64,000 nucleotides of DNA from Escherichia phage SP27: the sequence record LC494302.1. One strand, 5' to 3'. A program made the position numbers and the translations under genes. This document shows positions 30,461 through 63,615 of the stretch, one piece after another (the first letter of the stretch is position 1; each line of letters begins with the position of its first letter). Below the pieces are notes generated by a model. It was not told where the DNA came from. It saw only the letters and a list, made by a program, of their open reading frames with translations, and did no database searches.

Positions 30461-31321
30461 ATGAAACCTATCCGAGTACTTTCTCTTTTTAATGGAATGA
30501 GTGTGGGATATATGGCATTGCAAGATGCTGGTATCCCAGTTGAAAAATATTATTCATCCGAAATTGATAAGTACGCAATAGCTGAATCTCAATCTAACTT
30601 TCCTGATATTATCCAATTGGGTGATGTAACTAAGTGGAGAGAATGGGATATTGAGTGGGACAAAATAGATTTATTAATGGGTGGTTTCCCATGCCAAGCC
30701 TGGTCAGTTGCAGGTAAACAGGGTGGTTTAAATGATATACGTGGGCAGTTATTTTTAGTAATGGTTGAAATTTTTGATCATATCAAAAGTCTCAATCCTA
30801 ACTTGAAATTTCTGTTTGAAAATGTTAAAATGAAGGAAGATTTCAAAGAATACATTAATAGTATTTTAGGAATCACGCCAGTACTGATAAACTCCCAGCA
30901 TTATACGCCTCACTTCAGGCAGAGATATTACTGGTACAGTACTGATAAGCTTTTCATACCACCTGCATTATCCAATGCACCTAAACTTCAAGATATTATT
31001 GAAGATGGTTGGTACACTGACAGAACCGCTTCGTACTGTATAGATGCTAACTATTTTAAAGGTGGTGATTGTAACCAGTACTTTAATAAATCCAGACGAC
31101 AATTGGTGTTTCGTGACCCAGTGATCAGTCGTCAATATCTATTAGAGAATGGCAAAAGAAATATTGACTATAGACACTTAAGTGTAGTAGAATGTTGTAA
31201 ATTACAGGGTGTTCCTGAAGATTTCTTTAAAGTGTCTAGTAAGACACAAGCATACAAAATGCTTGGGAATGGATGGACTATGCCAGTTATATCACATTTA
31301 CTAAGAGAGATATTCTTTTGA
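30461..31321 (+). CDS. dcm: DNA (cytosine-5)-methyltransferase
   Basis: Motif I LSLFNGMSVG, catalytic motif IV GGFPCQAWSVAGK, motif VI ENV, C-terminal MLGNGWTMPV: canonical C5-MTase order. Confidence 0.85.
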   Translation: MKPIRVLSLFNGMSVGYMALQDAGIPVEKYYSSEIDKYAIAESQSNFPDIIQLGDVTKWREWDIEWDKIDLLMGGFPCQAWSVAGKQGGLNDIRGQLFLVMVEIFDHIKSLNPNLKFLFENVKMKEDFKEYINSILGITPVLINSQHYTPHFRQRYYWYSTDKLFIPPALSNAPKLQDIIEDGWYTDRTASYCIDANYFKGGDCNQYFNKSRRQLVFRDPVISRQYLLENGKRNIDYRHLSVVECCKLQGVPEDFFKVSSKTQAYKMLGNGWTMPVISHLLREIFF

Positions 31322-37961: not shown

Positions 37962-37975
37962 ACGTTACTTTGTAA

Positions 37976-38004
37976 ATACCCAGTACTTGACTGGGTATTT
38001 TTTT
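37976..38004 (+). terminator. rho-independent terminator
   Basis: atacccagt acttg actgggtat plus tttttt. Confidence 0.6.
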
Positions 38005-38015
38005 AAGGAAATAAA

Positions 38016-41837: not shown

Positions 41838-42251
<414 letters not shown>

Positions 42252-42308
42252 CTAAATAATTCAGTACTGAGGATATTAATATGTTTAAAGATGAACGTCC
42301 AGATTTGT

Positions 42309-42346
<38 letters not shown>

Positions 42347-42421
42347 GAATTCCACAATCAGACGTATATGGTGTAAGTTACGTCGATGCAATCCAGAACA
42401 AGATCTCTGGTACTCTAGGAA

Positions 42422-42631
42422 GTGGTGAATGTTAACCTAGACGGGTTTGATAATTGGACGATAGGCAATTATTACTTGACTAGCAGGTTGAAACTAGAGG
42501 TGACAGTCCTTCACCAAACTGGAAAACCGGATGGACTTTTATTTAAAAGGGTAAGGCGTGGAAATATGTTTACAGAAGTTGCTTTTAGTAGCCTGTACGC
42601 CCCACGTCAAGGTAGCCGAAAGGCAAGTTAA
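42422..42631 (+). CDS. hypothetical 69-aa ORF (alternatively part of a non-coding RNA)
   Basis: ORF lies in an unusually GC-rich segment between promoter 42318-42346 and terminator 42636-42692; coding status uncertain. Confidence 0.3.
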   Translation: MVNVNLDGFDNWTIGNYYLTSRLKLEVTVLHQTGKPDGLLFKRVRRGNMFTEVAFSSLYAPRQGSRKAS

Positions 42632-42635
42632 AACG

Positions 42636-42692
42636 GATGGTTATAAAGCTGAATTAACAGCGGCGTTTAAAAGCGTCACCATCCATTTTTTT
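42636..42692 (+). terminator. terminator-like long hairpin
   Basis: ggatggt...accatcc (7 bp closing a 35-nt interior) followed by attttttt. Confidence 0.4.
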
Positions 42693-42708
42693 AATTAAAG
42701 TTGGTGAT

Positions 42709-43473
<765 letters not shown>

Positions 43474-52510: not shown

Positions 52511-52986
52511 TGTTAACAATAGTGTTGTTGGTAAGTCCATTTGTGTATTTTGTGCTGTATAATATTTTTAGTAATGCTAATCATTTTAAATATGCACAAA
52601 CAATTGCAAAGCATGAAGGTTTTTGGAATTTTTTCCCAGCATTACTATGCTCATATCTATACCATGAACGCTATTTCATTTTTCCTGAATATAAAAATTA
52701 TGGTTATGATTCTAAAGTAAATGGTATAATTGAGTACTGTATAAGAAATTATCTTAATAATAATGATAACGTCCAAGTAAGAATAGGAAATGGTAATATA
52801 TCAAGAATAGTTTTCATACCTGATATACAAGATCCAATATACTTATATCCATATGATTATAGTATTAGTGTAGGTTGTTCGATACATGGTAGTAAATCTA
52901 TGTACGATTACTTTATCTTACCACCAACACAAATTAGATTAATAGAAAAATATTTGAGGGAAAAGTTTGACAACAAAGATTCTTAG
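52510..52986 (+). CDS. membrane-anchored protein
   Basis: N-terminal hydrophobic helix LTIVLLVSPFVYFVLY. Confidence 0.45.
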   Translation: MLTIVLLVSPFVYFVLYNIFSNANHFKYAQTIAKHEGFWNFFPALLCSYLYHERYFIFPEYKNYGYDSKVNGIIEYCIRNYLNNNDNVQVRIGNGNISRIVFIPDIQDPIYLYPYDYSISVGCSIHGSKSMYDYFILPPTQIRLIEKYLREKFDNKDS

Positions 52987-53910: not shown

Positions 53911-54332
53911 GAGGCTATAATAAGATTTGTATTTTTGTATTTTTAGTTTGTGCATTCAATTCGTTTGGTTACTACTGTACAGAAAATAATATTTCATATG
54001 GTTTAAATCCTTTGTGGTTTACAATTTCCAATGTAGCACAAATTGGTATTGCTCTTATGTCTGCACTTATGTTCTGTCCAATTGTCACTATGGATACGGA
54101 TCATGAAAGGCTTGGATTTCTCCGTGATACTGGAGACGAACCTTACAGTAGATTGATTGTGTTGTATCCATTTATTGTTATTTTAGGTACTAACATCCAA
54201 CTTGGGTCATTATCTAATAGTGTTACATCAGCAGCTATTGCTATATTTGCATTCACATTTTTTATGGTACACAAATCAGTACTTAATTGGTATATCACAA
54301 AAATGGCAGAAGAAGGTACTAAAAATACTTGA
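53907..54332 (+). CDS. multi-pass membrane protein
   Basis: Several hydrophobic helices. Confidence 0.5.
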   Translation: MRGYNKICIFVFLVCAFNSFGYYCTENNISYGLNPLWFTISNVAQIGIALMSALMFCPIVTMDTDHERLGFLRDTGDEPYSRLIVLYPFIVILGTNIQLGSLSNSVTSAAIAIFAFTFFMVHKSVLNWYITKMAEEGTKNT

Positions 54333-54358
54333 CATAATTTAGTATGTTATATATAATT
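54329..54358 (+). promoter_or_regulatory. sigma70-like promoter
   Basis: ttgacataatttagtatgttatatataat. Confidence 0.45.
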
Positions 54359-54649: not shown

Positions 54650-54678
54650 TTGACATAACAAATAATATGGAGTACAAT
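54650..54678 (+). promoter_or_regulatory. sigma70-like promoter (TTGACA-N17-TACAAT)
   Basis: ttgacataacaaataatatggagtacaat. Confidence 0.5.
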
Positions 54679-54717: not shown

Positions 54718-54978
54718 ATGAAATCTATTCTCGTTGCAGTTAACCTAGTTGCTTCCCCATCTTTCAACTTCAAACAAGTGGTTGCTGATAATCTGAAGAA
54801 GATCTGTCCAAACGCTGAATTAACTTTCTGTGTGTTTGATTCAGAAAAAGTAACTAAAGTTGATCTAAACTATCTTTTGAACGAAGTAAAAAGCGTTTCT
54901 GGTGAAAGTAACTTAAAAGTTCTTCATGATATTGCTGATGATTATGATGATACACTTGTAATTTCGGAGAAATTCTAA
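54718..54978 (+). CDS. hypothetical protein
   Basis: 86 aa ORF after promoter 54650-54678. Confidence 0.45.
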   Translation: MKSILVAVNLVASPSFNFKQVVADNLKKICPNAELTFCVFDSEKVTKVDLNYLLNEVKSVSGESNLKVLHDIADDYDDTLVISEKF

Positions 54979-54983
54979 ATAAA

Positions 54984-55403
54984 ATGTTTAGATTTCTTCA
55001 GTACTTAATCATTAAATTTTTTGGCTATTATACGATTGAAGGCAAAGCTACACTCGCACATAGAATCTTTGTAGCATTATGTACGGGTGATTATGACGTA
55101 TTGAATAAGTACTGTAAATCTAAAGCATGTATTGATATAATGGCACTTCGTATCTATGAGTGCCGTTCCAATAGATACAATTTTTACCAATACAGATTTG
55201 ATGAAAAAGAATTTGATAGCATCAAAATGCTTAAGAATTTATGTAACAATAAAAAGAATATGCATATATCAGAATTTGTTGCTTTGTATTTTTATTTAAA
55301 AAGTTCATTGTATATGAACACAATGCAAAGATTCGATACTAGAATTAATGTATTCACCGATAAAGAATTTTATATATACGATAAATTCTTAGATAAGGTT
55401 TAA
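54984..55403 (+). CDS. hypothetical protein
   Basis: 139 aa ORF. Confidence 0.45.
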   Translation: MFRFLQYLIIKFFGYYTIEGKATLAHRIFVALCTGDYDVLNKYCKSKACIDIMALRIYECRSNRYNFYQYRFDEKEFDSIKMLKNLCNNKKNMHISEFVALYFYLKSSLYMNTMQRFDTRINVFTDKEFYIYDKFLDKV

Positions 55404-55404
55404 T

Positions 55405-55902
55405 ATGACAACTGTTTATATTGATAAACGATTAAATTTATTGATTACCGATTCTAGAGTTACGTCAACTATACCACGAAACTTATTTGGTTTTTTCCCA
55501 CTAAGACCAAAATATCAATATGGAGTTGTTAATCAAAAAACTTTATATGTACATGACCGTTTATTCAGTGCTAGTGGGGTAGTAAGTGAAATTGATAAAG
55601 TACTGGATTGGTTAATTAATAAAGTACCAGTTATACCTGACAGAAAGTTAAGTTGCCATTGTGTGCTTCTTTCTAAAGATTATGTTATTCATATGATTTT
55701 AACTAAAGGAAAGTTTATTAAAAAACTTGAATATCTACATGAAGACTACACTTTCTTTATGGGAAGTGGTGGAGAATACATGCTAGATGCTGCTATTCAT
55801 GAAGAACATACAACTTTATATGATAAAGTGTTTAGTACTTTCATGGATGTGCACAACCATGATTGCTTCACAGATGATAATATTAATGTATATCGATTTT
55901 GA
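55405..55902 (+). CDS. hypothetical protein
   Basis: 165 aa ORF. Confidence 0.45.
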   Translation: MTTVYIDKRLNLLITDSRVTSTIPRNLFGFFPLRPKYQYGVVNQKTLYVHDRLFSASGVVSEIDKVLDWLINKVPVIPDRKLSCHCVLLSKDYVIHMILTKGKFIKKLEYLHEDYTFFMGSGGEYMLDAAIHEEHTTLYDKVFSTFMDVHNHDCFTDDNINVYRF

Positions 55903-55923
55903 TTTCGTCATTAGGAGATGTAA

Positions 55924-56889
55924 GTGAAAAAGCTTGATTTAAATACAATTGCCGAAGAAGTTCTGGATGAATGTTTTGCTAATGAAGAAGTCAACACACT
56001 AGAAGCCTTAGATTTCGTTGAAGATAAAGATGATAATGAAGGTAAAGTACAAAGCAGTTTCAAATATAATATTACACTTAAGCGACCACCAAATGTTTCC
56101 AATGAAGATCTAATTCGTGATATTCAAGCTGGTATCAATGTAAAGAAAAACACTGAACTGTTAGTTCGTTACAATTATGGACTGATTATTGATGTAGCAA
56201 GTAAATGTACTTGTTATATCCCATTTGAAGATAAGATTTCATATGGTGTTGAGGGGTTCATGAGAGCACTAAAAACCTTTGATCTTAATAAGAATGTTAA
56301 GTTCATTACCTATGCTTCTTCTAGTATTTACATGACAGTCTATAACGAAAGTTCTGACGCTAACTATATGGTACACTTCCCACGTTATATGAGTGTTCAT
56401 AAGATCAAAGTAAAAAGATTCTGCCAGGAATATATGCGTAAACATGGTGTTCGCCCAACACCTGAAATAATCTCAGAGGGTACTGGGATTGAGATTCAGC
56501 ATGTTAATAATTGTTTATTATTTCAAAGCGAATACACTTCACTGGATGCACCATTAGACGGTGTTACAGATGGTACATTAGGTGACATTATTCATTCACC
56601 TGCTTCTGATTTTAACCTCAATGTTGATAGTATCCGTGCACCTTTACGTTATGCTATCAATGAACTGACTAACGAATTGAGTACTAAAGAACGTGAGATT
56701 ATCCAGCGTGTTCATGGTCTAGGTGAATATGAACCTGAAACGCTTCGTGAGATTGCTGATAATGGTTTTGTTGATGATAATGGAAAATATGTTAAATCCC
56801 GTTCATCAATACACCGAAAGTACAGTGAAGCTATGCAAAAGCTTAAGAAGTTAGTACTTGCAAAAGGGTACGAATACGAAGATTTCTAA
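55924..56889 (+). CDS. sigma-70 family RNA polymerase sigma factor
   Basis: GTG start after AGGAGA RBS; region-2-like LLVRYNYGLIIDVASK...GVEGFMRALKTFD...FITYASSSIY and region-4-like HTH LSTKEREIIQRVHGLGEYEPETLREIADNGF...IHRKYSEAMQKLKKL. Confidence 0.6.
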   Translation: MKKLDLNTIAEEVLDECFANEEVNTLEALDFVEDKDDNEGKVQSSFKYNITLKRPPNVSNEDLIRDIQAGINVKKNTELLVRYNYGLIIDVASKCTCYIPFEDKISYGVEGFMRALKTFDLNKNVKFITYASSSIYMTVYNESSDANYMVHFPRYMSVHKIKVKRFCQEYMRKHGVRPTPEIISEGTGIEIQHVNNCLLFQSEYTSLDAPLDGVTDGTLGDIIHSPASDFNLNVDSIRAPLRYAINELTNELSTKEREIIQRVHGLGEYEPETLREIADNGFVDDNGKYVKSRSSIHRKYSEAMQKLKKLVLAKGYEYEDF

Positions 56890-56896
56890 AGAACAA

Positions 56897-56923
56897 GGGT
56901 TGGCTTATGCCAACCTTTTTTTT
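56897..56923 (+). terminator. rho-independent terminator after the sigma factor gene
   Basis: gggttggc ttat gccaacc plus tttttttt. Confidence 0.65.
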
Positions 56924-56943
56924 ATGGGATGAAGTAAAAGTTT

Positions 56944-56952: not shown

Positions 56953-57447
56953 TTATCTTGTACAATTCTGTTGGCATGATATTCATGTACCTGATCCACT
57001 CGAAAACGTAGAGGGCAGTTGAGCAGTCCGACAGTGCGAACAGCAAAAGAAACCCGTTAGATGTGGGCATAGTTTGAACCCCTCACGGCAATGCGGCTGT
57101 ATAAAGAACCACGTTAGGATAGCTGGTGGTTCCTTGATAGACATATAAGGATAACACCTTACGAATTATCTAAGGGAGAGTTATCGAATTTTGTACAGGA
57201 AAGTTGCGTCCAAAATTTGAGTACTCACATTAAGTATTTGATTGCATAGATACTTAATGAAGATACACTATGTTTAAAAGTGTAGACCGTCATATGAAAC
57301 TGAAGTAGAGAGAAACAGGATGACCCGCTTTCGCACTCGTTATGAGTAATCTTCAATGCAATAGCTCTGATACCATCAGCGTCAAATTTCCCTCCTTGTG
57401 GGGGGAAGAAAAATCCCTTCCTCAAATCCCGTCAATATTAAAAGTCC

Positions 57448-59272: not shown

Positions 59273-59300
59273 TTGACATAAGATATCAGTACTGTATAAT
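59273..59300 (+). promoter_or_regulatory. sigma70-like promoter with CAGTACTG spacer element
   Basis: ttgacataagatatcagtactgtataat. Confidence 0.55.
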
Positions 59301-63371: not shown

Positions 63372-63604
63372 TACTAAGTTTTGTTGTTGCACTATTGTTT
63401 ATGTTCTATCCTACACTAGTGGCATTAGCCACTAGACGAACGATGGTAGATCTCACTACTGTATTCTTGCTAAACGTGGCATTAGTACTGGTGTCTATTA
63501 TCATTCCAGTGAGCTTTACAGTTATTGATATTATTTCGGTATTACTCTTCGTGTTAAGTTATCTTATGCTTATTGAAGAAACAAATGTTGACAAACGTTC
63601 GTAG
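63362..63604 (+). CDS. membrane protein
   Basis: Two or three hydrophobic helices. Confidence 0.45.
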   Translation: MYLVLSFVVALLFMFYPTLVALATRRTMVDLTTVFLLNVALVLVSIIIPVSFTVIDIISVLLFVLSYLMLIEETNVDKRS

Positions 63605-63615
63605 TACTGTATAAT
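63588..63615 (+). promoter_or_regulatory. sigma70-like promoter with GTACTG spacer element
   Basis: ttgacaaacgttcgtagtactgtataat. Confidence 0.55.

Follow-up and report, generated by a model that had tools for sequence, protein, structure and literature searches.

The stretch of DNA considered here, 64,000 nucleotides (nt) of Escherichia phage SP27 (sequence record LC494302.1; hereafter the window), carries an open reading frame (ORF) at positions 55924-56889 that encodes a genuine sigma-70-family protein. The reading that we favour, with a probability of about 0.6, is that this protein would be an early sigma factor redirecting the host core RNA polymerase, that an apparently rigid promoter consensus of the window would partly result from a duplicated cassette, and that a symmetric palindrome, AGTACT, would be the site of a separate factor. 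The window belongs to an Asteriusvirus jumbo phage of the 121Q/PBECO4/JP4 type. It is 99.5% identical to Escherichia phage JP4 (Asteriusvirus, ~350-370 kilobases (kb)), and the 3-kb stretch around the sigma gene displays 97.5-99.5% identity to about 20 Escherichia and Salmonella Asteriusvirus jumbo phages with genomes of 310-373 kb, including JP4, slurp01, phAPEC6, G17, 121Q and PBECO4. An earlier description made from the sequence alone, without database searches (the sequence-only reading), had spoken of a T4-like phage; this holds at the level of the T4 superfamily, in which the phage occupies a distant branch and is not a T4-type phage proper.

The gene and its ribosome-binding site are as follows; the records of G17 and UE-S1 place the start at the same GTG.

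55924-56889, + strand: gene of the sigma-70-family factor, GTG start, 321 amino acids (aa), regions 2-3-4
55914-55918, + strand: Shine-Dalgarno sequence AGGAG, 5 nt 5' of the GTG

The sequence-only reading had recognised a sigma-70-family ORF with a GTG start, and this is borne out by Pfam, PHROG 351, TIGR02937 and Foldseek. In the profile search that it had suggested, the Pfam domain Sigma70_r3 lies above its cut-off (E 2e-9; 37.8 bits vs 25.3), and Sigma70_r2 (E 7e-5; 23.0 bits vs 24.0) and Sigma70_r4 (23.8 bits vs 24.1) fall narrowly under theirs. The latter match is limited to the first half of the domain (residues 251-279), the second helix of region 4 aligning with sigma-70 residues 582-599 only past an insertion of 8 aa. 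The region 2 alignment spans sigma-70 residues 379-456, with N383, D403, G408, G411, F419 and Y430 conserved. Furthermore, the protein matches PHROG 351, 'RNA polymerase sigma factor' (2e-60), and passes the superfamily model TIGR02937 (44.7 vs 42.9); its top NCBIfam model is RpoD_Cterm (6e-25, 88 bits), a score far from that of the primary-sigma (RpoD) equivalog TIGR02393 (88 bits vs a cut-off of 354). A phmmer search of the PDB retrieved 58 sigma sequences, the best being RpoD, SigA, SigB and RpoS, over residues 55-283. The AlphaFold2 model, built with 23 homologues (mean pLDDT 72), displays confident sigma2 (~50-150; pLDDT 80-90), sigma3 (154-200) and sigma4 (240-313) domains, and the 50 best Foldseek matches among PDB structures are, without exception, RNA polymerase holoenzyme sigma chains (E 6e-11 to 8e-9). 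The protein thus shares the sigma2-sigma3-sigma4 architecture of RpoD and RpoS, which give its best profile and fold matches, but is only 24% identical and lacks region 1.1 and the non-conserved region; indeed, a Pfam search found no match to region 1.1 or 1.2.

Full-length orthologues were found by tblastn across every branch of the Rak2-like phages (RaK2, Munch, CBB, GAP32, XaC1; coverage 94-100%), and nearly all of them carry a sigma annotation. Their identities to the SP27 protein are 44% for RaK2, 37% for Munch and SE_PL, 35% for GAP32, CBB, BF and fHe-Yen9-04, and 31% for XaC1; the proteins of 121Q, PBECO4 and G17 are 99% identical to it. In a large protein collection, the family forms 12 close clusters (47-99% identity), followed by a gap down to the bacterial sigmas (21-35%). 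The Rak2-like sigmas, among them CBB_513, RaK2 ORF244, 121Q gp167, Sharanji WNN14470.1 and that of GAP32, are orthologous to the SP27 protein, with the same length, early-region context and PHROG 351 assignment and no material difference; no member has a biochemically defined promoter. The orthologue CBB_513 contains regions 2, 3 and 4 and lies inside the presumed early region of CBB, a phage for which three classes of promoters and a gp55-like factor distinct from this sigma have also been reported (PMC5259590). The sigma gene of this jumbo-phage group, a hallmark of the group in the literature, is treated in PMC5259590 and PMC11895373, and most public records of Asteriusvirus phages annotate it as an RNA polymerase sigma factor. 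The gene is therefore already known, both from databases and as a marker of Rak2-like jumbo phages. Where the sequence-only reading saw a notable bona fide sigma in a T4-type phage, the sigma is bona fide indeed but not new.

Two family-specific terminal motifs are strongly conserved, MKKLDLNxIxDEVLDECF at the N-terminus (residues 1-18; window 55924-55977) and KGYExEDF at the C-terminus (residues 314-321; window 56863-56886). Both are better conserved than large parts of region 2 and lack a counterpart among bacterial sigmas, and the confidence of the structural model is low there; they may be docking motifs.

Among phage-encoded regulators, T4 gp55 is also a specificity subunit for the host core polymerase, but it is a minimal protein related to sigma2 only, which reads a -10-only promoter. 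By contrast, the SP27 protein, the product of an early-region gene, contains sigma3 and sigma4 domains in full, so that it does not group with the gp55-type (sigma2-only) factors. Functional analogues are T4 MotA/AsiA and the gp28 and gp33-34 cascade of Bacillus phage SPO1, early products that switch the host polymerase to middle promoters. MotA/AsiA, however, remodels the host sigma-70 instead of replacing it, and no sequence relationship is claimed with these systems.

The position of the gene suggests how it is expressed. The following signals surround it, and a further 12/12 promoter is found upstream at 52967.

54329-54357, + strand: perfect host-type promoter TTGACA-17-TATAAT (12/12), 5' of the sigma operon
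54650-54678, + strand: nearest promoter, TTGACA-17-TACAAT (11/12), heading the operon 54718-56889
56895-56925, + strand: intrinsic terminator with a 10-pair stem and a T run, directly 3' of the sigma stop codon, annotated in G17 and UE-S1

Since no terminator-like site was found between the 54650 promoter and 56895, the sigma gene is the last of a four-gene operon (54718-56889). Judging from these promoters, the host sigma-70 holoenzyme should read the operon immediately after infection.

The promoters that the factor itself would recognise were approached through its residues. The protein was aligned to Escherichia coli sigma-70 (BLASTP, 24% identity, E 7e-19) and to ten members of its family. 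It retains the region 2.2 core-binding pattern and, in part, the -11A pocket (N383, D403, G408, G411, M413, A415, F419, K426, F427, T429, Y430, A431). The residues that read or melt the -10 element are replaced family-wide (Y425V, W433S/T/A, W434S/T/A, R436Y, Q437M, T440Y, R441N), as are those of the extended -10 element (H455Y, E458V), and the -35 motif R584-E-R-I-R-Q589 has become R-S-S-I-H-R (E585S, R586S, R588H, Q589R). In sigma-70, these residues set the -10 and -35 specificity. Furthermore, 8 aa (DNGFVDDN) are inserted in the turn of the region 4.2 helix-turn-helix; in the AlphaFold2 model, the insertion forms a beta-hairpin between helices 274-280 and 293-313, inside the helix-turn-helix. 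The altered residues and the insertion are both conserved in the 10 homologues. The specificity of the factor would thus differ from TTGACA-N17-TATAAT, and the replacement of the reading residues throughout the family, together with the insertion in region 4.2, makes it unlikely that the SP27 sigma reads TTGACA/TATAAT promoters. This analysis leads to a concrete prediction, namely that the factor will not use such promoters.

The window is rich in promoters of that host type, defined here as TTGACA and TATAAT hexamers 16-18 base pairs (bp) apart. Sites with at most two mismatches number 55 on the + strand vs 12 on the - strand, and the perfect 12/12 sites 11 vs 0; 24 sigma-70-like promoters of the + strand are intergenic, typically ~30-100 nt 5' of a gene start. 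According to the sequence-only reading, many promoters of the window share the rigid consensus TTGACT-AAATAGTTCAGTACTG(A)-TATAAT. This long form occurs exactly twice only, at 41839 and 42318, and a degenerate and a diverged copy lie nearby:

41839-41866, + strand: exact copy 1, TTGACT-AAATAGTTCAGTACTG-TATAAT, driving ORF 41898-42251
42318-42346, + strand: exact copy 2, in which an additional A precedes TATAAT (canonical TGnTATAAT), driving ~330 nt that end in a terminator
42248-42276, + strand: degenerate copy TTGACTAAATAATTCAGTACTG, one spacer mismatch and no good -10 hexamer
43089-43117, + strand: diverged copy TGGACA-ATAGTTTTCAGTACTGA-TATAAT, preceding genes of the transfer RNAs (tRNAs) tRNA-Ser, tRNA-Met and tRNA-Asn

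These four copies are confined to 1.3 kb of the tRNA cluster, among repeated small genes (repeat families D1-D4, of which D2-D4 are neighbouring repeated gene starts), and are therefore, to judge from their sequences and setting, local duplicates. The ~20 other intergenic promoters of the window have unrelated spacers. What stands of the claim is a shorter element, AGTACTG, found in 5 of the 24 promoters.

The ~330 nt driven by exact copy 2 form, with their promoter, a segment (42318-42705) of the tRNA cluster that ends in a long-stem terminator (~42635-42695) and contains only a doubtful 69-aa ORF. Rfam gave no match for this segment. It is missing from a 97.5%-identical relative, which indicates a strain-specific insertion, and may encode a small RNA.

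AGTACTG lies directly 5' of TATAAT in the promoters at 41839, 42318, 43089, 59273 and 63588, vs ~0.1 promoter expected. Two of them are independent of the tRNA cluster:

59273-59300, + strand: independent perfect promoter, spacer ending in CAGTACTG before TATAAT and otherwise unrelated; site conserved in UE-S1
63588-63615, + strand: independent perfect promoter, spacer ending in TAGTACTG before TATAAT and otherwise unrelated

In the 42318 promoter, the -35 hexamer carries a fused AGTACT as well (AGTACTTGACT...AGTACTGATATAAT), the two sites being 20 bp apart. For genome-wide counts, a 352-kb unannotated relative with 97.5% identity, OR844650.1, was assembled; a scan of IMG/VR for additional relatives gave 121Q itself only. 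In OR844650.1, AGTACT starts 7 or 8 nt 5' of the -10 hexamer in 21 of the 113 promoters (at most one mismatch), vs ~0.6 expected from the density of AGTACT sites in this genome, and the spacers of these 21 promoters are otherwise diverse. Most of them belong to a 30-kb array, outside the window, of genes averaging ~95 aa. This array includes a second promoter family, in which AGTAC is fused to a TTGCAA -35 element (aaaAGTACTTGCAa...gCGTATAATgtttt). Pairs of AGTACT sites 20-24 bp apart are also in excess over the whole genome (27 vs ~12 expected). At promoters, the palindrome spans -19 to -14 and ~-40 to -34, and its constant placement, seen in roughly one in five of the strongest early promoters, suggests a simple regulatory switch. 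Near the sigma genes of relatives, the AGTACTG arrangement was found once in RaK2 (25133) and not in CBB or Munch, and XaC1 has no TTGACA/TATAAT promoters in the 14 kb around its sigma gene; the element therefore does not travel with the sigma.

The array itself, at ~301-322 kb of OR844650.1, comprises 20-30 kb of genes of ~95 aa with a G+C content of 38-39% and an AGTACT density of 60-67 sites per 10 kb. Its genes are preceded by ~22 near-identical aaaAGTACTTGCAa-N17-gCGTATAATgttttacatc promoters, each followed by a strong GAGGGG ribosome-binding site. The region looks like a highly duplicated immediate-early cassette region.

The palindrome goes far beyond promoters. In the window, AGTACT is present in 153 copies, vs 21.5, 16 or 30 expected from Markov models of order 0, 1 and 2, and CAGTACTG in 26 copies vs 0.6-1.7 expected.

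1-64000: over-representation of AGTACT (153 copies) in both coding and non-coding DNA and in all three frames

Inside genes of the window, 126 copies are found vs 34 +/- 5 after shuffling of synonymous codons, again in all three frames, which excludes a bias in codon usage or dipeptides as the cause of the excess. In OR844650.1, AGTACT has 919 copies vs 119 expected (7.6x) and CAGTACTG, with 204 copies, is the most frequent 8-mer. The enrichment concerns every 10-kb bin of that genome except the short terminal one, with 2.4 sites per kb of coding DNA, 4.3 per kb of non-coding DNA, and modest peaks 5' of starts and just past stops. The palindrome, kept at ~1 site per 400 bp, was found in every Rak2-like jumbo phage sampled, whose hosts are E. 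coli, Klebsiella, Salmonella, Pectobacterium and Xanthomonas; it ranks first or second among over-represented hexamers in the DNA flanking the sigma genes of RaK2 (8.2x), CBB (8.1x), Munch (6.5x) and XaC1 (13x), and two unrelated AT-rich phages with sigma homologues display no AGTACT excess. Such an enrichment across five host genera points to an unrecognised function at the DNA level. It also contrasts with the general avoidance of palindromes: 23 of the 64 six-bp palindromes are absent from OR844650.1 (the eight that consist of G and C only, and 15 of the 24 that have four G/C bases), where ~9-32 copies of each would be expected in 352 kb, and 27 are absent from the window, AGTACT (7.6x) being the one strong exception.

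The flanks of the sites are two-fold symmetric as well, with a preference for C at -1 and G at +6 and a disfavoured G at -1. Among non-coding sites, A/C/G/T counts at -1 are 38/67/10/32, vs 39/70/8/30 at the complement-matched +6. This symmetry disfavours a signal acting on RNA or on one strand. A drive by repair of the very-short-patch type was considered in connection with one gene of the window:

30461-31321, + strand: C5-cytosine DNA methyltransferase (Pfam DNA_methylase, 7.5e-38)

Since the one-mismatch neighbours are not depleted (observed/expected 1.06 for the transition neighbours AATACT/AGTATT), such a repair-driven bias is unlikely. Two CAGTACTG sites, at 30879 and 30937, lie inside this methyltransferase gene, and CpG-context methylation has been described for RaK2 phage DNA (RaK2 paper).

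Known sites that share the core and the two-fold symmetry were also compared. AGTACT is the ScaI restriction site, but restriction sites are normally avoided, not enriched. The SlmA-binding site of E. coli, GTGAGTACTCAC, contains the AGTACT core, but the phage flanks prefer C...G, GAGTACTC having 4 copies vs 204 for CAGTACTG. Host SlmA or LexA sites were rejected on this misfit of the flanks and because the enrichment is highest in the Xanthomonas phage, which argues against any host-specific factor. A search of the accessible literature found no description of this palindrome word, the search with CAGTACTG returning primer sequences only. Between strains 90% identical, 67-76% of AGTACT sites are retained vs 56% for any hexamer, and nearby pairs of lost and gained sites are observed, both in a small sample. 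These data suggest a selection on density rather than on single sites, and do not support position-specific regulatory sites throughout the genome.

Put together, these data are best explained as follows. The host RNA polymerase would make the sigma early in infection; the factor would then bind the host core polymerase and redirect it to a different class of promoters, most likely those of middle or delayed-early genes. Late promoters of the TATAAATA type would be left to a separate gp55-like factor. Promoters of this late type, (C/A)TAAATA, are visible upstream of large structural genes and have no -35 element; the Rak2-like clade resembles T4 in these TATAAATA-type late promoters and in the gp55-like gene reported for it (PMC5259590). 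A 41-bp promoter cassette duplicated locally in the tRNA cluster would account for part of the "rigid" consensus. The (C)AGTACT(G) palindrome, placed at fixed spots in some host-type early promoters, where it abuts the -10 element and is often also joined to the -35 element at its 5' edge, about two helical turns away, would be used by a symmetric DNA-binding or DNA-modifying protein encoded by the clade. A bound dimer would overlap the polymerase footprint and thereby modulate transcription by host sigma-70, probably as a shut-off. It is also conceivable, although we hold this wider view only tentatively, that AGTACT marks or organises the phage DNA genome-wide through such a symmetric protein or modification system and doubles as an early-promoter operator. 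If so, the word may serve in self-recognition, compaction, replication or packaging, or defence evasion.

Several observations weigh against this reading. We infer the middle-gene role of the sigma from the position of its gene and from its residue changes, and the redirection to other promoters stays conjectural because the cognate motif was not found. Indeed, searches for k-mers in upstream regions gave only host-type, late-type, ribosome-binding-site and terminator words; a de novo search of 255 upstream regions of the relative revealed no third promoter class beyond those words and GTACTTGCAA, which is a -35 variant of its early array. TGAAACG, a class reported for CBB and GAP32, was rejected as the target of the sigma, being neither enriched nor intergenic in the window. 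Furthermore, the sigma retains R584 as well as Y430, F419, T429 and K426, which belong to the -11A pocket, so that some reading of TATAAT-like or -35-like elements is possible. As for the palindrome, ~84% of the sites are intragenic and single sites come and go between strains, for which reason its main role is probably not promoter control; some sites are merely halves of terminator hairpins, and a search for DNA-binding domains in the genes adjoining the sigma gave no matches and no candidate for an AGTACT-binding protein.

The terminators in question form a recurring family in which each half of the stem contains AGTAC, for example gCCAGTACTTGATACTGGc followed by a T-rich stretch, or acccAGTACTtgACTGGGTattttttt. 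One example lies at ~37975-38005 and many are found in the relative. They explain, at least in part, why AGTACT peaks within 40 nt past stop codons.

Other explanations take the same elements differently. The phage sigma, alone or with a partner, might read TTGACT/A-...CAGTACTG-TATAAT, the rigid spacer being its specificity element, as the sequence-only reading had suspected. The fixed place of AGTACTG beside the -10 hexamer in 21 of 113 strong promoters would fit this view, the sigma and AGTACTG promoters co-occur in Asteriusvirus and RaK2, and the differences between this sigma and sigma-70 in regions 3.0 and 2.4 make another extended -10 element conceivable. However, a two-fold symmetric palindrome is ill-suited to a sigma element read on one strand, and the ~84% of copies within genes have no TATAAT nearby. 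The AGTACTG promoters already bear perfect host -35 and -10 hexamers, and the sigma is devoid of W433, W434, Q437, T440 and most of the RERIRQ motif. Moreover, CBB, Munch and XaC1 keep the sigma without the arrangement in the DNA that flanks its gene, and the promoters of the SP27 sigma operon themselves lack AGTACTG. Reading of the rigid promoters by the phage sigma is thus very improbable and that earlier proposal is not supported, even if a co-factor acting at these promoters is possible.

At the opposite end, no extra factor might be needed: AGTACTG would be a favourable spacer or extended -10 (TG) element for host sigma-70, spread by cassette duplication, and the palindrome excess would be unrelated. 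Duplication is indicated, since the exact rigid copies of the window are local duplicates and many copies in the 302-322 kb array of OR844650.1 share flanks well beyond the motif; besides, 7 of the 21 cases are AGTACTGnTATAAT, a canonical TGn extended -10. In the other 14, however, TG abuts TATAAT and is out of the canonical register, the element recurs with unrelated spacers and flanks (59273, 63588, RaK2 25133), and the -35 element is frequently joined to another AGTACT; we consider this explanation unlikely. Finally, the sigma might act in late transcription beside or instead of the gp55-like factor, or mainly compete with host sigma-70 as a shut-off device. The clade is reported to have no gp33 and gp45 homologues for a T4-style late activation (PMC5259590), the N- and C-terminal motifs could be protein-docking sites and the upstream k-mer searches found no middle promoter motif. 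Yet late-type promoters have no -35 element whereas the sigma keeps a full sigma4 domain, its gene sits in an early operon, and the window encodes a clamp-loader homologue (JP4 annotation), so that a lack of T4-like late machinery cannot be taken as given. A late or purely competitive role appears quite unlikely, and an early factor directing the host core to other promoters remains the preferred reading.

The other contents of the window include replication genes of the T4 superfamily (JP4 annotation), which encode a Dda-like helicase, a topoisomerase II, the clamp loader and an exonuclease; the window also carries virion genes, the C5-cytosine methyltransferase gene, the tRNA cluster and long arrays of small genes with no assigned function. 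Its G+C content is 33%, and the + strand holds 115 of the 131 ORFs of a greedy ORF map. The upstream neighbours of the sigma gene have no known function apart from one weak HslV-like match, and an HNH endonuclease gene lies downstream. In several relatives, arrays of small one-strand genes with host-type promoters likewise flank the sigma gene.

A non-coding element of ~350-450 nt (56960-57440; core 56990-57333) lies directly 3' of the sigma terminator and contains no credible ORF. The relative genome has three more paralogous copies, with 70-85% identity and co-oriented with transcription, at ~128, 208 and 262 kb. Comparison of the four copies by RNAalifold gave 58 pairs, 24 of them with compensatory double changes, and in most copies a TATAAT box precedes the core. 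With a profile of the element, matches were obtained in non-coding DNA close to the sigma genes, in CBB (E 7e-54), in Munch (E 2e-33) and, for part of the element, in RaK2 (E 2e-14); the element is conserved far better than the proteins. Rfam gave no match for 56960-57440, which could represent a family of structured RNAs or an origin-like element.

Lastly, five small ORFs between 39738 and 41683 share identical first 20 nt, ATGACACATGAAGAATGGAT, and the protein start MTHEEWM...; they form a paralogous small-gene family interleaved with tRNA genes.

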